From sequence record PQ036202: a stretch of 64,000 nucleotides of DNA; one strand, 5' to 3'. Origin of the DNA: Escherichia phage GEP101. Position numbers and translations under genes: made by a program. Shown piece by piece: positions 3,914 through 57,568 of this stretch. The notes under the pieces are model-generated. The model was not told the origin of the DNA. It saw only the letters and a program-made list of their open reading frames with translations, and ran no database searches. The stretch's first letter is position 1. Every line of letters starts with the position of its first letter.

Positions 3914-4215
3914 AATGACCCCAAAGTTATATTAAATTTTGTATTACATTGAGTATAAAAATAAGCTATAACACCTGACTTGTCAACAGACTTTATAGCT
4001 TATTTGGCAGATTTTTTATAAGGCTACTGCCATCCTTCCATACATTACCTTACCTTACCTTACCAGACCACACCATGCAAAACCAGACTTCACATCACCC
4101 GACTGTGCAATACTTCACTTAAAAACCCTCTTAAAAGACTCTTAAGTGATGCTGGTGAGTACCCGTTGGTTTATGCTGCTCAGTATACTCACCAAATTTT
4201 CTATGTCAACAACTT

Positions 4216-9960: not shown

Positions 9961-9985
9961 TACTGCAAAAAATTATAAAAAGCAA

Positions 9986-10012
9986 GTTGACAATGTACTT
10001 GACAAGGTGTTA
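9986..10012 (+). promoter_or_regulatory. tandem TTGACA element (GTTGACAA-N6-CTTGACAAGGTG), putative early promoter
   Basis: Two TTGACA hexamers 12 bp apart in the divergent intergenic region; same architecture at 46825 and 57046. Confidence 0.4.
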
Positions 10013-10182
10013 ATCTTTGCGAAGTGGGTTTTTACTTAAAAGGTTACTTAACAGTTTAACTATACAGATACTTTAAAACTCTTAAAAGATTATTTAATAG
10101 CTTTTAAAAGTTTTAAAGTATAACGTATAGAATACGTTAAGATAAAAGATTAAAACTTAATAGTTACTTAAAAGAGGCTTAC

Positions 10183-42847: not shown

Positions 42848-42935
42848 AAAGTACTTTACAAGGGGCTTAAAAGTTGATATCTTAAGCCCCAGAAAAAGAG
42901 CTTTACTAACAACCTTAAACTAGGAGATTCAAAAA
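42848..42935 (+). promoter_or_regulatory. type B intergenic element (palindrome + conserved RBS leader)
   Basis: AAAGTACTTTACA, 9-bp-stem palindrome GGGGCTTAA...TTAAGCCCC, AGAAAAAGAGCTTTA, CCTTAAACTAGGAGATTC; four copies. Confidence 0.5.
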
Positions 42936-45425: not shown

Positions 45426-45518
45426 ATAAAAAGTACTTTACAGGGGGCTTAAAAGCTGATATCTTAAGCCCTAGATAAAGAGCTTTATCACTCAATCCTT
45501 AAACTAGGAGATTCTAAA
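45426..45518 (+). promoter_or_regulatory. type B intergenic element
   Basis: Copy 4. Confidence 0.5.
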
Positions 45519-46923: not shown

Positions 46924-47017
46924 TTGCAATCAGCTATCAAAACAAGTAAATTACTAATTAACGGGGAGGGGATGACCTTCCCCACTAAGTAAAGTCCTTA
47001 AACTAGGAGATTCAAAA
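46924..47017 (+). promoter_or_regulatory. promoter-hairpin-RBS cassette (type A variant)
   Basis: TTGCAA-17-TAAATT, hairpin, conserved RBS. Confidence 0.5.
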
Positions 47018-47548
47018 ATGAACAAGTTCAAAGCCATCAATTACATCCGCTCAAATAGTGTTATGTCAAAGCCTGTTAAAGACACCTATGAATTCCGTTG
47101 TAATGGTGTACACTTTGCAACCATCACCAAATCAGAAAACGGGGCTTATTACATTCATCGCCGTAATGTTGCAACCGTTGTAGTCTCTCATTTTATGCAA
47201 GCTGTCGCGGAACTCCTCCCGATGTTTTTAGGCCTTTACTTGGATGAGTGCAAAAACGTTCACAATCACGTTAAAAACCTTTTAAATAGTTATAAAATGG
47301 CTTATGAACGTTCTCTCAAGTCATTGAACAAGTTTTACAACGCACCTGAAAACACCATATCAATGGCCTATGCTGTAAATGGTGAAACAGTGAGTCTCTT
47401 TGAAGTGGAAAAAATCAAGCTGTACGATTTACTCCCTAGCGGTTACGCTAAAACCATCGGTGAAGGCTTAACGTTCAATATCAAGAACTTAGAAAAAACT
47501 TTAAAAGATATTGAAAAAGATATTGACGAGACAATCAAAAATCTATAA
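47018..47548 (+). CDS. hypothetical protein (cassette-array gene)
   Basis: 176 aa; last gene before non-coding repeat region. Confidence 0.5.
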   Translation: MNKFKAINYIRSNSVMSKPVKDTYEFRCNGVHFATITKSENGAYYIHRRNVATVVVSHFMQAVAELLPMFLGLYLDECKNVHNHVKNLLNSYKMAYERSLKSLNKFYNAPENTISMAYAVNGETVSLFEVEKIKLYDLLPSGYAKTIGEGLTFNIKNLEKTLKDIEKDIDETIKNL

Positions 47549-49272
47549 ATTGTCAATCAACGGGGCTAAAATAGCCCCAGATACCTTTTACAGCCCCTTT
47601 CCATATTGATTCGATAGAATCTATCTCATAGGGGCTTTTTTACGTCCTATCAAATCCCTTTCCCTTTCCCTTTCCAGAATCTATCCCACTAATTCGATAG
47701 AATCTATCTCATACCTTAAAAAGCAATAACTCTATAGCTTACTCTATAGCCTTTTATTAAATCAACTTAAATAAAAGCCAATACCCCCAGAAAGGGGATG
47801 GCCCATTTAAACGCTCTATAAAGCCCTATAACGGCCTTATTAACATAACTTAAGGGATTGCATTAACTCACCATTAAAAGCCCTTTATAAAGCTTTCTAG
47901 GGGCTTAAAAGAGCCTTAAAAGAATCTTATAAGGGTGTAAGCTTTATCATCTCGTTAGTTATCTTATTGGCATTGTTACAATTCCTAGTGAACTACTAAA
48001 AAGGGCTTGCTAGTGTCTTAAAAGTATGTTATAGGGGCTATAAAGTTGCTTAAAAGTAGCTTAAAAGTTACTTCAAAGTTACTTCAAAGTTACGTAAATG
48101 CTAGCCCCCTTAACAATTTCTTAACAAATCCTACAAAGTTATGCTTATTAGAGACTTGTTAGCAACTTGTTAGCCCCTTGTTAAATCTCTGTTAAAACCA
48201 TGTAAAGCCTTGTAAGAACCTTTGACATAGCCTTTAAAGCTCCTGAAAAGCCCTATAAAGAGCTTTCTACATAGTTGGGGTGCAATTACTAGGGAGAGAC
48301 TAAAAAGGGCTTATAAAGAGCTATAGAGAGCTTTTAAGAGGGCTATTTAAAGAATCACTAAGAGGGAAAGGGAACGATAAGAAAGAGATAGTGACCATGT
48401 TAATGGCTTGTTAAAAAGTTTAAACACTTGTTAGAAACTTGTTAATTATCTTAACAAAATAACTCTTAAAAATTAACTTCTTAACTCTTGTTAGTCATCT
48501 GTTAAGACTCTGTAAAGACCATGTAGCAACTGTTAAGGAACTGTTACATCCTTGTTAGTTCTGTTGAGAATCTGTTAAGACCTTTGAAGAGTTGTTAAGA
48601 AGATGTGAGAACTGTTAAGAGATTGTTAATGATATTTTAAAATTTTGCAAAGGGGGTGTTACAGGGATGTTAAGGGCTACCAAGCAGATATACATCTTTT
48701 ACAGATATTTTTGAGTTCCTTCAAAGACCCTAAAAAATGACTTGATAGTCCTATTTTATAAAAATTTTAAAATTCTGAATAATTACCTATACAGTCTTCT
48801 AAAAATACAGGCATAAACAGGCTTATAAGATACCTTGTTAATACCGTGTTAGACCTTGTGAGATAAGGTCTGCAAAGATATTCCTGTTAAGTTTGTTAAA
48901 ACAGTCTATATAGAGGCTTAGTAATACCTAGTGAACACCTATAGAGGGTAACATAGCTGACATAGAGATTAAGAGGTGTATAGGGGCTTCTAAGAGGTTA
49001 TAGAGAGATGGTTAAGGTGATTGTATAGGTTGTTAAGAAGGCTTGTTAGAAGAGTGTTTAGAAGGGCTATACAGAGGGGCTATTAAGACCACTAGATAGA
49101 TACTAAGATACTATATAGTACTATATAACTATATATAGAGAGTAAGCTTAAGAAGGTTGTTAAGAAGGGTAGATATTTTTATTCACATATGATGGTGACC
49201 CAGAGGTTGGGACAACCGATGAAATTTTATAAAAATTAAAAAGCCCCCAATTAAGGAGGCTCTTAAGATATT
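47549..49272. repeat. 1.7-kb ORF-free region with arrays of ~11-bp phased short motifs
   Basis: No ORF of 60 aa or more on any frame; TGTTAAG/TGTTAGC-type runs at ~11-bp spacing (48150-48200, 48400-48650), TATAAAGAG/TAAGAGG runs (48240-48360, 48910-49140), 11-bp x5 repeat at 48030-48100, 21-bp direct repeat at ~47608/47693, (CCCTTT)3. Confidence 0.7.
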
Positions 49273-49866
49273 TTAAATCAGTGTTTCCAGAACTGTCTTC
49301 AGTGATGACTTGGTTGTCTGATAAAAATGAGTAAATCCATTGTTGTTATCGAATACCTGCATCATGATGTCATCTCCCTTGATTGGGTACACTCGGATAT
49401 CATAGTGGAACCCATTAAAGACAGCAGAACCATTACAGAATAAACTAAAGTCATCCACTGAGATATACTCTTCATGTCCTGTGATTTTTATACAGATGCC
49501 TTTACTCGGTCTCTTAGGGTTAATATCTTCCATCACAGACATATTCTGTCCACCAAGAGATACCATAGTGACTACTTTACGGTTCTTCTGTTTAAAGTAC
49601 ATCTTAACTTTCTGTAAAGTGTCTTCATAGAACGGATACGACTTCTCTACAAAGATTCCTTCAAGTGGGTCTTTACCATTTTTAACTTCTCTGTAACCCC
49701 GTACTGCAAAAACAATCTGTTTTAATCTGTCAAGACTTTCTTCAGAGAGTGCTTCTTGAGCATCACTCCAATCAAGGACTAGGTAGTTACCTTCAACTTC
49801 TTTTAAGTTATCTTTTTCCATATCTATCACACCATTATCGTAAAACTTGGTAAGCTGGAACTGCAA
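49273..49866 (-). CDS. hypothetical protein
   Basis: 197-aa ORF, last gene of minus-strand block. Confidence 0.45.
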   Translation of the reverse strand: MQFQLTKFYDNGVIDMEKDNLKEVEGNYLVLDWSDAQEALSEESLDRLKQIVFAVRGYREVKNGKDPLEGIFVEKSYPFYEDTLQKVKMYFKQKNRKVVTMVSLGGQNMSVMEDINPKRPSKGICIKITGHEEYISVDDFSLFCNGSAVFNGFHYDIRVYPIKGDDIMMQVFDNNNGFTHFYQTTKSSLKTVLETLI

Positions 49867-53617: not shown

Positions 53618-54033
53618 TAACGAATAACCTGTGTGACTTGAATTGCTTCAGTTACGGACAAATCACCTACTTTCTCTTCTTTGATAAAAGTGAAGGTGAG
53701 TTCAACAGGTTCTTCCTCTTCTTCTTCTTCTTCTTCTTCTTGCTCAACTGGAACACCATTAAGCTCATCAAAGATTGATTGGGTTGTCCAGTCTTCACCA
53801 CCATCTGGGTAGTGGATTGCGTAGAGAGGAAACTCCCTGTCAAACCAACCAAATACAGGGCAGCCATCTTCATCATCTCGCACTCGATGAAGGGTGCTTC
53901 CAGACCCTGTAAAACGAAGGAATAAATCTCCATTGCACTTGAATATTACTGCGTCGGCAAAACCAATGTCTTCTCGACCATCATGACCAAATGTGTCCAC
54001 CTTTACTTGGATATCTCTAACATCTTTATTCAT
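53617..54033 (-). CDS. hypothetical protein with poly-Glu tract
   Basis: EQEEEEEEEEEE encoded by (CTT)n run at 53712-53741. Confidence 0.45.
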   Translation of the reverse strand: MNKDVRDIQVKVDTFGHDGREDIGFADAVIFKCNGDLFLRFTGSGSTLHRVRDDEDGCPVFGWFDREFPLYAIHYPDGGEDWTTQSIFDELNGVPVEQEEEEEEEEEEPVELTFTFIKEEKVGDLSVTEAIQVTQVIR

Positions 54034-56804: not shown

Positions 56805-57045
56805 AGATAATCCTCTTGTCTTCTGTAATTTTGAAAGAACAGGTACAGACCAATTTCAGAGGATGAATAGTAGAGCAACTCTACCCTTTTTGATTCCTTA
56901 CAGTGATTGGTATTTTTACCTTTCTTCGGGTTGTTTGATTTTCTCATTAAGTCTCCTTTGTAGAACAAGGCAGACCTACAGCTTTAAATAAGATGGTACA
57001 GTAATCCATACAACAAGTCAAGAACTATTGCAAGTTAAAAAAGTT

Positions 57046-57072
57046 GTTGACAAAGGGCTTGACAAGGTGTAG
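57046..57072 (+). promoter_or_regulatory. tandem TTGACA element (GTTGACAA-N6-CTTGACAAGGTG)
   Basis: Divergent intergenic region; same architecture as 9986. Confidence 0.4.
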
Positions 57073-57196
57073 GCTTATAAATACTTAGAAGATAACTTAA
57101 AAGGTTCCTCTAAAAAGGCTATTTAAACAGATATCTTTCTGGATATCTATCTTTTATCTTAAAAGCCTTTTAAGAGGTCTTATAAGAGGCATACCA

Positions 57197-57568
57197 ATGA
57201 AAAACAGAACAAACAAAGGCCAGTTTAAAAAAGGCCAGTCTGGAAACCCATCTGGAAGACCAAAAGGCTCTCGTAACAAAAGTTCACTTGTAAAAGCTCA
57301 ACTGACCATTGATAATTCTGCTGAGTTTGCTGCAAAGTTGTTTGAAGCGATTGTTACAAGGGACGCTGCTAAGCTTGCAGAGTTCGGGTTAAACACAGAT
57401 GACGTAACCATCAAGAGCATGATTGAGGTCGGTAAAACTATCTTTACTCACTCAGCAGGTGAGATGAAAGCACTTGCAGCAGACACTAAGAAGACTTCTG
57501 ATAATGGTGGTCAGCCACAGACAGATAACAAACCAACGTTCTCTGCTGTAGCGACTCTCAAAAAATAA
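57197..57568 (+). CDS. hypothetical protein
   Basis: 123 aa; N-terminal Gly/Lys-rich GQSGNPSGRPKG. Confidence 0.45.
   Translation: MKNRTNKGQFKKGQSGNPSGRPKGSRNKSSLVKAQLTIDNSAEFAAKLFEAIVTRDAAKLAEFGLNTDDVTIKSMIEVGKTIFTHSAGEMKALAADTKKTSDNGGQPQTDNKPTFSAVATLKK

Follow-up and report, generated by a model that had tools for sequence, protein, structure and literature searches.

A gene-free stretch of phage GEP101 as a Felix O1-like genome terminus: phased short repeats in the direct terminal repeat

Introduction

What is served by 1.7 kb of phage DNA on which two blocks of genes converge, in which no gene can be found, and in which short words recur every 11 bp or so? Such a stretch lies at positions 47549-49272 of the window, as we call the 64,000 nucleotides of Escherichia phage GEP101 (sequence record PQ036202) analysed here. 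An earlier note, made from the letters alone, had placed its repeats on one face of the helix for the cooperative binding of a protein, and had offered a replication origin, a packaging or terminus region, or a silencing or organising nucleoprotein site as candidate roles. The window comes from a Felix O1-like myophage (Felixounavirus). Its ORF-free stretch is the terminus region of the phage genome; in replicating head-to-tail DNA it joins one genome copy to the next. Here we set out what supports this identity, describe the anatomy of the direct terminal repeat (DTR) and its surroundings, and weigh what the repeated cores may do.

The non-coding stretch and its neighbours

The stretch is bounded by two genes and by the terminators that follow them:

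47018-47548, plus strand: last gene of the plus-strand block, 176 aa, from the ORF list; no assigned function
47562-47641, plus strand: two terminator hairpins closing the plus-strand block, read from the sequence
49239-49264, minus strand: intrinsic terminator closing the minus-strand block, from a terminator scan
49273-49866, minus strand: last gene of the minus-strand block, 197 aa, from the ORF list; no assigned function

Between the stop of the plus-strand gene at 47548 and that of the minus-strand gene at 49273 there is no ORF of at least 40 aa in any frame, and the longest that lies wholly within measures 38 aa; the stretch is as free of genes as had been claimed, and the gene blocks do converge, both flanking genes terminating at its edges. 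Furthermore, the objection that it might be an artefact of assembly is ruled out, since 255 independent records of Felixounavirus, Suspvirus and Mooglevirus phages carry it with 80-93% identity. Missed by the earlier note, the outer 100 bp and 35 bp of the region are ordinary terminators. The first hairpin of the plus-strand block reads GGGGCT-AAAAT-AGCCCC (47562-47578) and the second pairs AGCCCCT with AGGGGCT ahead of a T run (47592-47641); both are kept in 10 genomes, and the AYO145A and Moogle records annotate terminators at positions matching both edges of the region. These edge terminators evidently stop both converging transcription units short of the junction.

The neighbouring genes say little of function. 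Comparison of ten flanking ORFs with PHROGs and Pfam returned no known domains and none with an assigned function, and PDB sequence searches with both immediate neighbours gave nothing. The 176-aa plus-strand gene matches PHROG 4725, a family annotated as of unknown function, and no Pfam entry. Its position beside the non-coding region is kept in four genera; in phiEa21-4 the homologue is gene 29, with 29% identity in the alignment.

Genome ends and the terminal repeat

The identity of the stretch follows from the ends of related genomes, which fall on three features:

48102-48115, plus strand: left boundary motif TAGCCCCCTTAACA, from record starts and alignment
48104-48681, plus strand: short DTR, 578 bp, present as a single copy in the record, from homology to relatives' DTRs
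48668-48694, plus strand: right boundary block, TGTTAAGGGCTACC before the cut and AAGCAGATATACA after it, from alignment with relatives

In genomic position and flanking genes the region is syntenic with those of mio, AYO145A, skuden, SUSP2, Moogle, Michonne, Sf13 and SEP1. The records of CRP22, D4, Pr103Blw and NBSal004 all begin at window position 48104, further records begin within about 10 bp of it, and that of EcSzw_1 begins at 48680, the right boundary, in reverse orientation; by these start positions, independent isolates have fixed, non-permuted ends in common. Pr103Blw carries a 581-bp DTR annotated at both ends, derived from PhageTerm, which aligns end to end with 48104-48681. The 608-bp DTR of UAB_Phi87, determined experimentally with Bal31 and run-off sequencing, is the same segment, its left edge lying within 8 bp, and its right edge within 2 bp, of those in the window. 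Through these two phages, homology places the segment at both ends of the virion DNA. Because the record starts, the Pr103Blw annotation and the sequenced DTR of UAB_Phi87 coincide there, 48104-48681 is almost certainly the DTR and the surrounding stretch the terminus. Thus the packaging or terminus role was the right one among those proposed, related virion DNA ends mapping to 48104 and 48681, although it had gone unrecognised that the TGTTAAG array itself is the terminal repeat.

The Felix O1-like DTRs of UAB_Phi87, Pr103Blw and Ro111lw share with the GEP101 repeat the same segment, the same flanking genes and the same end sequences. They differ from it in length, at 608, 581 and 613 bp respectively against 578 bp in the window, and the GEP101 isolate is without one CTTAACA unit at the left DTR edge. 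The terminase gene sits outside the 64-kb window; for relatives, PMC4837284 assigns the large terminase to the short-DTR clade.

Cutting, by homology, occurs at the left and right boundary sequences. The left virion DNA end falls between 48103 and 48104 (...GCTA/GCCCCC..., the slash marking the cut), in a context that does not vary among 10 genomes of three genera. It can still be made out in Kolesnikvirus, one record of which opens with an Illumina adapter tail and then GCCAC.... The right end falls after 48681 (...GGGCTACC/AAGCAG...), in the block at which the DTRs of Pr103Blw and UAB_Phi87 both end; this block, too, is unchanged throughout the 10 genomes from three genera, and its AAGCAGATATACA is retained in phiEa21-4 as well. 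The two boundaries share one motif of 12-14 bp in opposite orientations, TAGCCCCCTTAACA at the left and TGTTAAGGGCTA at the right. Against this placement, one Kolesnikvirus record has its deposited right end 27 bp upstream of the homologous position. The array of TGTTA-type cores is fitted closely to the cuts, starting 5 bp inside the left one and stopping 6 bp inside the right one.

Anatomy of the repeats

Within the DTR, three segments can be told apart:

48157-48216, plus strand: TGT[TA]A array I, 6 cores at steps of 11, 11, 11, 11 and 10 bp
48232-48380, plus strand: central DTR, with CTWWAAAG, TATAAAGAG/TAAGAGG units and GGAAAGGGAA
48398-48673, plus strand: TGT[TA]A arrays II and III, 16 cores at spacings of 11, 20, 33 and 49 bp

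Two inverted CTTAACA units (48109-48127) precede array I, and an AT-rich segment with inverted TTAACA (48449-48485) interrupts arrays II and III. The 11-bp periodicity that had been claimed stands up to lag analysis: identical 5-mers recur at lag 11 on 71 occasions where 100 dinucleotide shuffles give 3.4 (z about 30), with harmonics at 20-22, 31 and 42, and no sustained lag-11 signal is found elsewhere in the 64-kb window. The words are strongly biased to one strand: TGTTA has 28 copies on the plus strand, where the rest of the window would predict 2.6, against 5 on the minus strand (read as TAACA). More than 25 TGTTAAG-type units had been counted; exact TGT[TA]A cores number 21 in 48150-48650 and 22 in the whole DTR (to 48668), and the total passes 25 once inverted TTAACA and one-mismatch variants are added.

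The 22 same-strand cores keep phase with one another at 10.35-10.4 bp (R = 0.81), a value reached by 132 of 5000 jittered arrays, so that in a single genome the coherence is only moderately significant (p about 0.03). In each of the 10 genomes compared, which are not independent of one another, the optimal period falls at 10.35-10.45 bp. Between genera, identity is 0.95 in the cores and 0.73 at the other DTR positions, a difference attained by none of 577 circular shifts; indels between genomes measure 11, 21/22 or 32/33 bp, in other words steps of 11 bp; and the repeat layout is kept in four genera. The non-coding DNA as a whole is 74-76% conserved between genera, against 50-60% for the flanking genes.

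Outside the cuts, the region carries further repeats of its own:

47608-47630, plus strand: 23-bp hairpin-containing element GATTCGATAGAATCTATCTCATA, copy 1, in the loop of the second terminator
47655-47675, plus strand: (TCCCTT) x 3.5 simple repeat, from Tandem Repeats Finder
47691-47713: 23-bp element, copy 2
47714-48103, plus strand: left DTR flank, conserved blocks and 10 same-strand CT[AT][ATC]AAAG units
48042-48098: 11-bp x 5.2 tandem, from Tandem Repeats Finder
48695-49238, plus strand: right DTR flank, the part of the region best conserved between genera

The minor elements of the earlier description were recovered with small corrections of extent. Its direct repeat of 21 bp proved to be one of 22-23 bp (47608-47630 and 47691-47713), its (CCCTTT)3 is (TCCCTT)3.5, and the 11-bp tandem with inverted GGGGC/GCCCC flanks is present in 5.2 copies, bracketed by TGTTATAGGGGCTA (48027-48040) and TAGCCCCCTTAACA (48102-48115); TATA[AG]AG and TAAGA[AG]G units occur, as described, at 48254-48359 and 48909-49161. 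The 23-bp element is present or absent among relatives, in varying places and in either orientation. In Kolesnikvirus the left flank carries a different 11-bp unit, CTTCTAA. In the right flank, 72-78% of columns at 48700-48999 are identical across three genera. This flank holds an AT-rich stretch (48740-48807, up to 84% A+T), pairs of TGTTA (48836-48894, 49031-49044 and 49158), TATAGAG/TAAGAGG units (48909-49161) and a TATATA cluster (49096-49137). Since the TGTTA pairs at 48836-49158 lie outside the DTR, array and repeat do not coincide exactly.

What the cores may do

Taken as a whole, the evidence is best explained, in a judgement held with more confidence than doubt, by a terminus and DTR whose phased cores bind a protein in the service of packaging or end formation. 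The parts of this explanation differ in weight. It is probable that the TGT(T/A)A cores are protein-binding sites: some 22 one-strand TGT(T/A)A(A/G) cores stand in register over about 50 turns of 10.4 bp, and a putative protein could line one face of the DNA by way of them. Cooperative binding on one face, as the earlier note envisaged, draws support from phase coherence, core conservation and 11-bp indels, but the search for the protein itself, among the flanking ORFs and in the fold of the 176-aa neighbour, found no candidate. The AlphaFold model of that neighbour (from a 12-sequence alignment, pLDDT 90) had no Foldseek match in the PDB at E <0.1 and no recognisable DNA-binding fold, and on this predicted structure it was dropped as a core-binding protein.

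That the core-binding protein serves packaging or end formation is held more tentatively, at somewhat short of an even chance. The binder would most likely be that part of the packaging machinery which recognises DNA, or a helper of it; the bound DTR would thereby be marked, the terminase would nick both of its edges and the repeat would be duplicated, in a scheme of the T7 type. By the unit types, which differ between the flanks, the machinery could distinguish the left from the right side of the junction. Among relatives no small terminase is annotated, and the only candidate, a 66-aa acidic ORF upstream of the AYO145A large terminase gene, has no assigned function. Two other short-DTR phages, an N4-like one used as a negative control and an SP6-like one, are without such arrays; the arrays are therefore no general requirement of short-DTR packaging.

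A bolder version, speculative and in our estimate improbable, has the DTR defined by a protein filament polymerised along one face of some 22-26 phased TGTTAAG sites. With its edges marked by the inverted TAGCCCCCTTAACA and TGTTAAGGGCTA, the filament would act as a ruler for two terminase cuts about 580 bp apart, and the distinct left and right flank units would supply the polarity of the junction. If true, this would be a pac-site architecture undescribed for any short-DTR phage, and it might account for the unexplained arrays of T7 as well.

Alternatives to packaging

The cores could instead assemble a protein-DNA complex at the genome end that protects against exonucleases, controls ejection or starts replication near the end. 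There are possible parallels in protein p6, which coats the DNA ends of phi29, and in the repeat-rich injection stop region of T5. Phasing and core conservation fit such a complex equally well, the array fills the very segment found at both virion ends, the end-adjacent genes of the linear genome point outward and no inward-reading promoter stands out. We nevertheless consider it unlikely: neither the flanking genes nor the neighbour's fold offered a candidate end-binding protein, and the inverted boundary motifs stand exactly at the cuts, so the anatomy is tied to cutting.

A replication origin in the region, or formed by the whole of it, is distinctly less probable; the repeats would then be iterons and the AT-rich 48740-48807 the unwinding element. 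In its favour, the arrays adjoin an AT-rich 50-mer (84% A+T, at 48758), one exact DnaA-box-like TTATTCACA lies at 49179, an extreme of cumulative GC skew falls at 47-50 kb, and T7 has secondary origins near its ends. This role, one of those first proposed, has little specific support. Allowing one mismatch, the region has 6 DnaA-box-like sites where 5.2 are expected, which is no enrichment; IHF and Chi sites are absent from it, and PHROGs and Pfam scans of the flanking ORFs show no adjoining initiator gene. The cores measure 5-6 bp every 10-11 bp, against the usual iterons of 17-22 bp, and the array has its edges where terminase cuts. As for the skew, its extreme here is a maximum located where gene orientation changes, a confounder; its minimum, near 10 kb and flanked by the genes for DNA polymerase and primase-helicase, marks a site that is no worse a candidate.

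It is very improbable that the region works without a specific protein, through an intrinsic shape or direction-dependent flexibility that phased TG/CA and TTAA steps would lend to a packaged DNA end, or that the repeats are a mere by-product of 11-bp replication slippage in dispensable DNA. Indels between genomes come in 11-bp units, so slippage or unequal exchange does operate, and the AA/TT phasing of the left flank at 10.5-11 bp falls in the top 2-3% of window segments. Within the DTR itself, however, AA/TT phasing is not significant, and A-tract phasing was rejected as the source of the periodicity. Cores that are 95% identical between genera beside spacers at 73% form a pattern foreign to neutral slippage, and the region is better conserved than the neighbouring genes.

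A promoter cluster or an RNA gene was dropped because promoter-like sites are not above shuffles (8 sigma-70 sites against 6.8 +/- 2.5, no excess), and a structured non-coding RNA locus likewise finds neither a promoter excess nor an Rfam match, the scan, which covered 47000-49800 and admitted E values up to 1, giving only chance-level matches far below gathering scores.

Significance

The DTR of these phages was already known; its internal anatomy of phased cores, inverted cut-site motif and 11-bp length steps appears to be undescribed. Those parts of the literature on Felix O1-like DTRs that were accessible give lengths and one DTR sequence and leave the arrays undescribed; they likewise hold no description of the inverted boundary motifs or of the conserved 1.1 kb of flanks, and the accessible portions, the Bas63 knockout study included, report no experiment on the non-coding region.

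Placing the ends at 48104 and 48681 allows GEP101, and many Felix O1-like records opened elsewhere, to be oriented and annotated, and the DTR to be flagged as a collapsed repeat in assemblies. Several Felix O1-like phages are candidates for therapy or biocontrol, and the region defines what synthetic rebuilds or packaging vectors of such phages must keep. To our knowledge, how ends are recognised and duplicated in short-DTR phages other than T7 is poorly understood. With about 22 conserved, phased sites across four genera, these phages form a tractable system for finding the recognition protein, and the DTR arrays would allow it to be tested whether array length sets repeat length.

Comparison with known systems

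The closest analogue is T7, likewise a short-DTR phage with a non-coding junction, in which short-repeat arrays accompany a terminal repeat of 160 bp. Its 738-bp junction carries the heptamer YCTAAAG on one strand, in and around the repeat, in 17 copies, and the strand bias is complete (17 [CA]TAAAG against 0 CTTTAG). A one-strand array of short repeats in and beside the terminal repeat is therefore common to both phages, and the T7 heptamer resembles the CTTAAAAG and TGTAAAG units of the GEP101 region. We know of no established function for the T7 arrays. The differences are several. The T7 period is 13 bp, which is not a helical turn, whereas the GEP101 units recur locally every 11 bp and on average every 10.35-10.4 bp; the T7 copies lie mostly outside the repeat, whereas the GEP101 DTR is filled by one unit type; and the Felix-type region is about three times longer, with three unit types partitioned by the cut sites. 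The left end of T7 has inward-reading promoters, and in the GEP101 region none is evident in the scan. As the arrays share no sequence homology and differ in period and placement, the GEP101 region is an analogue of the T7 junction and not a member of its class.

Iteron-type origins resemble the region in having direct repeats beside an AT-rich stretch, but here unit size and spacing are different and the repeat field is bounded by terminase cuts. Another likeness, in short repeated sites at helical-turn spacing, is offered by the parC/ParR system and by the pac sites of P1 and SPP1. The pac sites are built from repeated short boxes, and P1 and SPP1 are headful packagers without defined terminal repeats. 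The parC centromere of plasmid R1 consists of two sets of five 11-bp repeats bound by ParR, and in systems of this type a small DNA-binding protein assembles cooperatively on sites a helical turn apart, along one face or as a wrapped complex. In contrast to parC/ParR, no partition genes or recognisable small DNA-binding genes lie beside the GEP101 region, and where parC has 10 sites, GEP101 has 22-26 over 0.58 kb.

Identity of the ORF-free region

The ORF-free region of phage GEP101 (window 47549-49272), which lies between two converging gene blocks, is almost certainly the phage terminus region, containing the short direct terminal repeat (DTR) and closed on both sides by terminators. Megablast with the region returned 255 phage records, nearly all of them Felix O1-like myophages (Felixounavirus and sister genera), and in 174 of these a single match, in most cases 80-93% identical, spans 80% or more of the query. 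Other genes in the window (DNA polymerase, primase-helicase, ribonucleotide reductases, rIIA/rIIB and 23 tRNAs) are consistent with such a phage. The identification as a terminus follows from where related DNAs begin and end. Records of CRP22, D4, Pr103Blw and NBSal004 all begin at query base 556, equivalent to window 48104, and that of EcSzw_1 begins at 48680 in reverse orientation. Bases 1-581 and 87841-88421 of the Pr103Blw record are annotated as a DTR on the basis of PhageTerm analysis (PMC8303462); aligned to the window, both ends define a repeat of 578 bp at 48104-48681. In UAB_Phi87, a 608-bp DTR was determined by Bal31 digestion and run-off sequencing, and its sequence (supplementary Figure S1) starts AACATTTTCTTAACAA... 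and ends ...GATGTTAAGGGCTACCAA (PMC4837284). It is the segment matching the window's repeat, its left end offset by at most 8 bp and its right end by at most 2 bp. Ro111lw has a DTR of 613 bp (PMC6454146). The GEP101 record opens at another point of the genome and contains a single copy of the repeat. Of the roles proposed for this DNA in an earlier note made from sequence alone, packaging or terminus is thus borne out, the ends of related phage DNAs mapping to 48104 and 48681. Because the gene blocks converge, end-adjacent genes of the linear virion DNA are transcribed outward, towards the ends.

Anatomy of the region

Between the stop codons of the + strand (47548) and - strand (49273) blocks there is no ORF of at least 40 aa, and the longest wholly inside is 38 aa, in keeping with the earlier claim that the region is free of ORFs. 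Its short units are of three types, nearly all on the + strand.

Features of the ORF-free region (cuts placed by alignment with relatives)
47562-47641, + strand: terminator closing the + block; hairpin plus T-run, annotated in relatives
48103/48104: left cut, between ...AATGCTA and GCCCCCTTAACA...
After 48681: right cut, between ...TGTTAAGGGCTACC and AAGCAGATATACA...
49239-49264, - strand: terminator closing the - block; hairpin plus T-run, annotated in relatives
Left flank: CT[AT][ATC]AAAG units, the main type there, 10 copies
DTR and right flank: TGT[TA]A[AG] units, the main type in the DTR with 20 copies; 7 in the right flank
DTR centre and right flank: TATAGAG/TAAGAGG units, 8 and 9 copies

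The boundary motifs TAGCCCCCTTAACA and TGTTAAGGGCTA are mutually inverted copies, and a third copy at 48027-48040 brackets an 11-bp tandem of 5.2 units (48042-48098). Within the DTR the TGTTA-type array begins 5 bp from the left cut and ends 6 bp from the right; it opens with inverted CTTAACA units, two in the window and three in all nine relatives. That tandem had been described in the earlier note, as had a simple repeat, here (TCCCTT)3.5 at 47655-47675, units of the TATAAAGAG/TAAGAGG type and a direct repeat of 22-23 bp at 47608 and 47691; all were found again. Its count of more than 25 TGTTA-type units holds if inverted and degenerate copies are added; exact TGT[TA]A occurs 21 times in 48150-48650 and 22 times in the entire DTR.

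A 23-27 bp element with a small hairpin (GATTCGATAGAATCTATCTCATA) occupies 47608-47630 and 47691-47713. Among the terminus regions of different genomes it varies in presence, place and orientation; examples are copies within the loops of terminators, one to the immediate right of the Moogle DTR and one at 48004 in SEP1. Such behaviour resembles that of a very small insert that is mobile or prone to recombination. Two small genes of 264 and 249 nt, found in most relatives between the 531-nt gene and the non-coding region, are missing here and likewise in SEP1.

A phased and conserved array of short sites

Pairs of identical 5-mers spaced 11 bp apart number 71, whereas dinucleotide-preserving shuffles average 3.4 (z ~30); this substantiates the periodicity of about 11 bp described in the earlier note. 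As harmonics fall at 20-22, 31 and 42 bp, the mean step is nearer 10.5 than 11 bp. A sliding scan of the whole 64-kb window found no sustained 11-bp periodicity elsewhere. On the + strand of the region TGTTA occurs 28 times, where its frequency in the rest of the window predicts 2.6; the complement occurs only five times.

The periodic structure appears to be functional, and four results favour this. First, an ORF-free region of ~1.7 kb with matching array layout is also present in Suspvirus (SUSP2) and Mooglevirus (Moogle, Michonne, Sf13), whose flanking protein is only 49-59% identical to that of the window; DNA identity between genera is 65-76% across the DTR and right flank and only 51-65% in the two immediately adjacent genes. 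Second, in a 10-genome alignment the cores (TGT[TA]A and inverted T[TA]ACA) are conserved between genera at 0.95, versus 0.73 for other DTR positions, with a sharp fall one base beyond the 5-6 bp core; in 577 circular shifts of the core mask this difference was never reached. Third, all 22 cores keep phase throughout the DTR (vector strength R = 0.81, period 10.35-10.4 bp), and the best period is 10.35-10.45 bp in all ten genomes despite DTR lengths of 570-613 bp. When each gap above 12 bp was moved by up to 5 bp, 132 of 5000 jittered arrays attained the observed R, a result suggestive rather than overwhelming, the ten genomes being non-independent. Fourth, genomes differ in length within 48000-48700 by 11 bp (six events), 21/22 bp or 32/33 bp, the only exceptions being single-base gaps and insertions of the 23-27 bp element. 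Taken together, conserved layout, conserved cores, long-range phase and quantised indels indicate that selection acts on short, sequence-specific sites which share one face of B-DNA in an essentially relaxed state. Pure DNA mechanics or neutral slippage is very improbable, opposed as it is by the contrast between conserved cores and drifting spacers.

Extension to Erwinia phages

Sensitive blastn extends the comparison to Kolesnikvirus, whose large terminase is 69% identical. At the same position as in Felix-type genomes, phiEa21-4 has an ORF-free region of 1.19 kb with TGTTAA and TTAACA arrays in 11-bp steps and the block AAGCAGATATACA; its left flank carries another 11-bp unit, CTTCTAA, in 10-12 copies by word counted. 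The record of vEam_PM_6 (PP079182.1) opens with nine bases of Illumina adapter 3' tail (TTCCGATCT), followed directly by GCCACTTTTACATTT, a sequence that aligns to GCCCCCTTAACATTT at the left end of Felix-type DNA and thereby shows conservation of the left cut site. The adapter tail is a public-record artefact, yet a useful marker of a true DNA end. In the vEam_PM_6 record the repeat as deposited spans 412 bp and stops 27 bp short of the position homologous to the right cut, either a real difference or an imprecision.

What the sites may bind

Sites on one face are what a cooperatively binding protein would require, and the cores are probably phased protein-binding sites. That their binding protein serves packaging or end formation is a tentative reading, albeit our preferred one. 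On this reading the DNA-recognition part of the packaging machinery would be drawn to the cores, terminase would then nick at both inverted boundary motifs, and duplication of the terminal repeat would follow, as the T7-type scheme has it; the differing flank units would supply left-right polarity. Terminase nicking with repeat duplication is established for T7. Relatives have no annotated small terminase, the ORF preceding the large terminase gene encoding a 66-aa acidic protein, and none of the ten flanking genes has a known domain. The 176-aa neighbour (+ strand, 47018-47548), whose position is kept in four genera, gave a confident model (pLDDT 90) and no significant fold match.

A protein complex assembled at the DNA ends for end protection or DNA entry, not packaging, is an unlikely alternative use of the same sites. 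Less likely still is a replication origin, another role proposed earlier and weakly backed: DnaA boxes are not enriched, no initiator gene was found nearby, and the GC-skew extreme at the region is a maximum that cannot be separated from the effect of gene orientation. The skew minimum falls near 10 kb, between the polymerase and primase-helicase genes.

Other observations

Units of the CTTAAAAG type, like those of the left flank, cluster at 9985-10180, 57040-57190 and 4100-4150. They sit in the leaders that follow two sigma-70-like promoters of almost the same sequence (CTTGACAAGGTGT); the first promoter separates the - strand DNA polymerase gene from the + strand block, and the second precedes the gene at 57198. 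At the 10-kb site the cumulative GC skew also reaches its minimum, which makes this site a candidate for an origin or for early control. A hairpin, GGGGCTTAAAAG...CTTAAGCCCC, occurs twice in gaps between small genes, at 42850-42900 and 45430-45480; the two copies are counterparts of the 57-bp direct repeats described from intergenic DNA of Felix O1 and are probably terminators or RNA processing sites. A (CTT)x9 run at 53714-53740 lies within a - strand coding region, where the frame would decide between a stretch of acidic residues and one of lysines.

Restriction and Dam sites are very strongly avoided in the window: GATC is absent against ~230 expected under a maximal-order Markov model, as are CTGCAG (20 expected), CAGCTG (13), CCATGG (11) and GGTACC (8.5). 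GU169904.1 (147 kb, named Staphylococcus phage SA1) contains a Felix O1-type terminus region at 135406-137078 (88-90% identity) together with terminus-flanking genes, which suggests a chimeric or contaminated deposit.

Comparison with known systems

The finding is a short-DTR terminus with repeat arrays. With sequence, position and ends all matching, the region can be assigned to the Felixounavirus short-DTR type; its identity is not new, since DTR location, length and sequence are already published for close relatives, and genome ends in a repeat-rich gap will not surprise a specialist. In a search confined to open-access literature, none of three features was found described: the phased and selectively conserved cores that fill the DTR, the inverted boundary motifs, and the persistence of the entire 1.7-kb junction in four genera. 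The core array offers a clean handle on how such phages recognise and measure their terminal repeat.

No comparable array is present in the one N4-like and one SP6-like short DTR examined. The closest mechanistic analogue is T7, where the junction between genome copies, rebuilt from the T7 record, has 17 [CA]TAAAG heptamers, all on the same strand, within and beside its 160-bp repeat. The T7 array, however, has a period of 13 bp rather than a helical turn, places most heptamers beyond the repeat and shares no sequence homology with the Felix-type region; the relation is one of resemblance, not membership. Elsewhere, parC of plasmid R1 presents phased 11-bp sites to cooperatively binding ParR, and p6 of phi29 coats the ends of phage DNA; both are parallels by analogy only.
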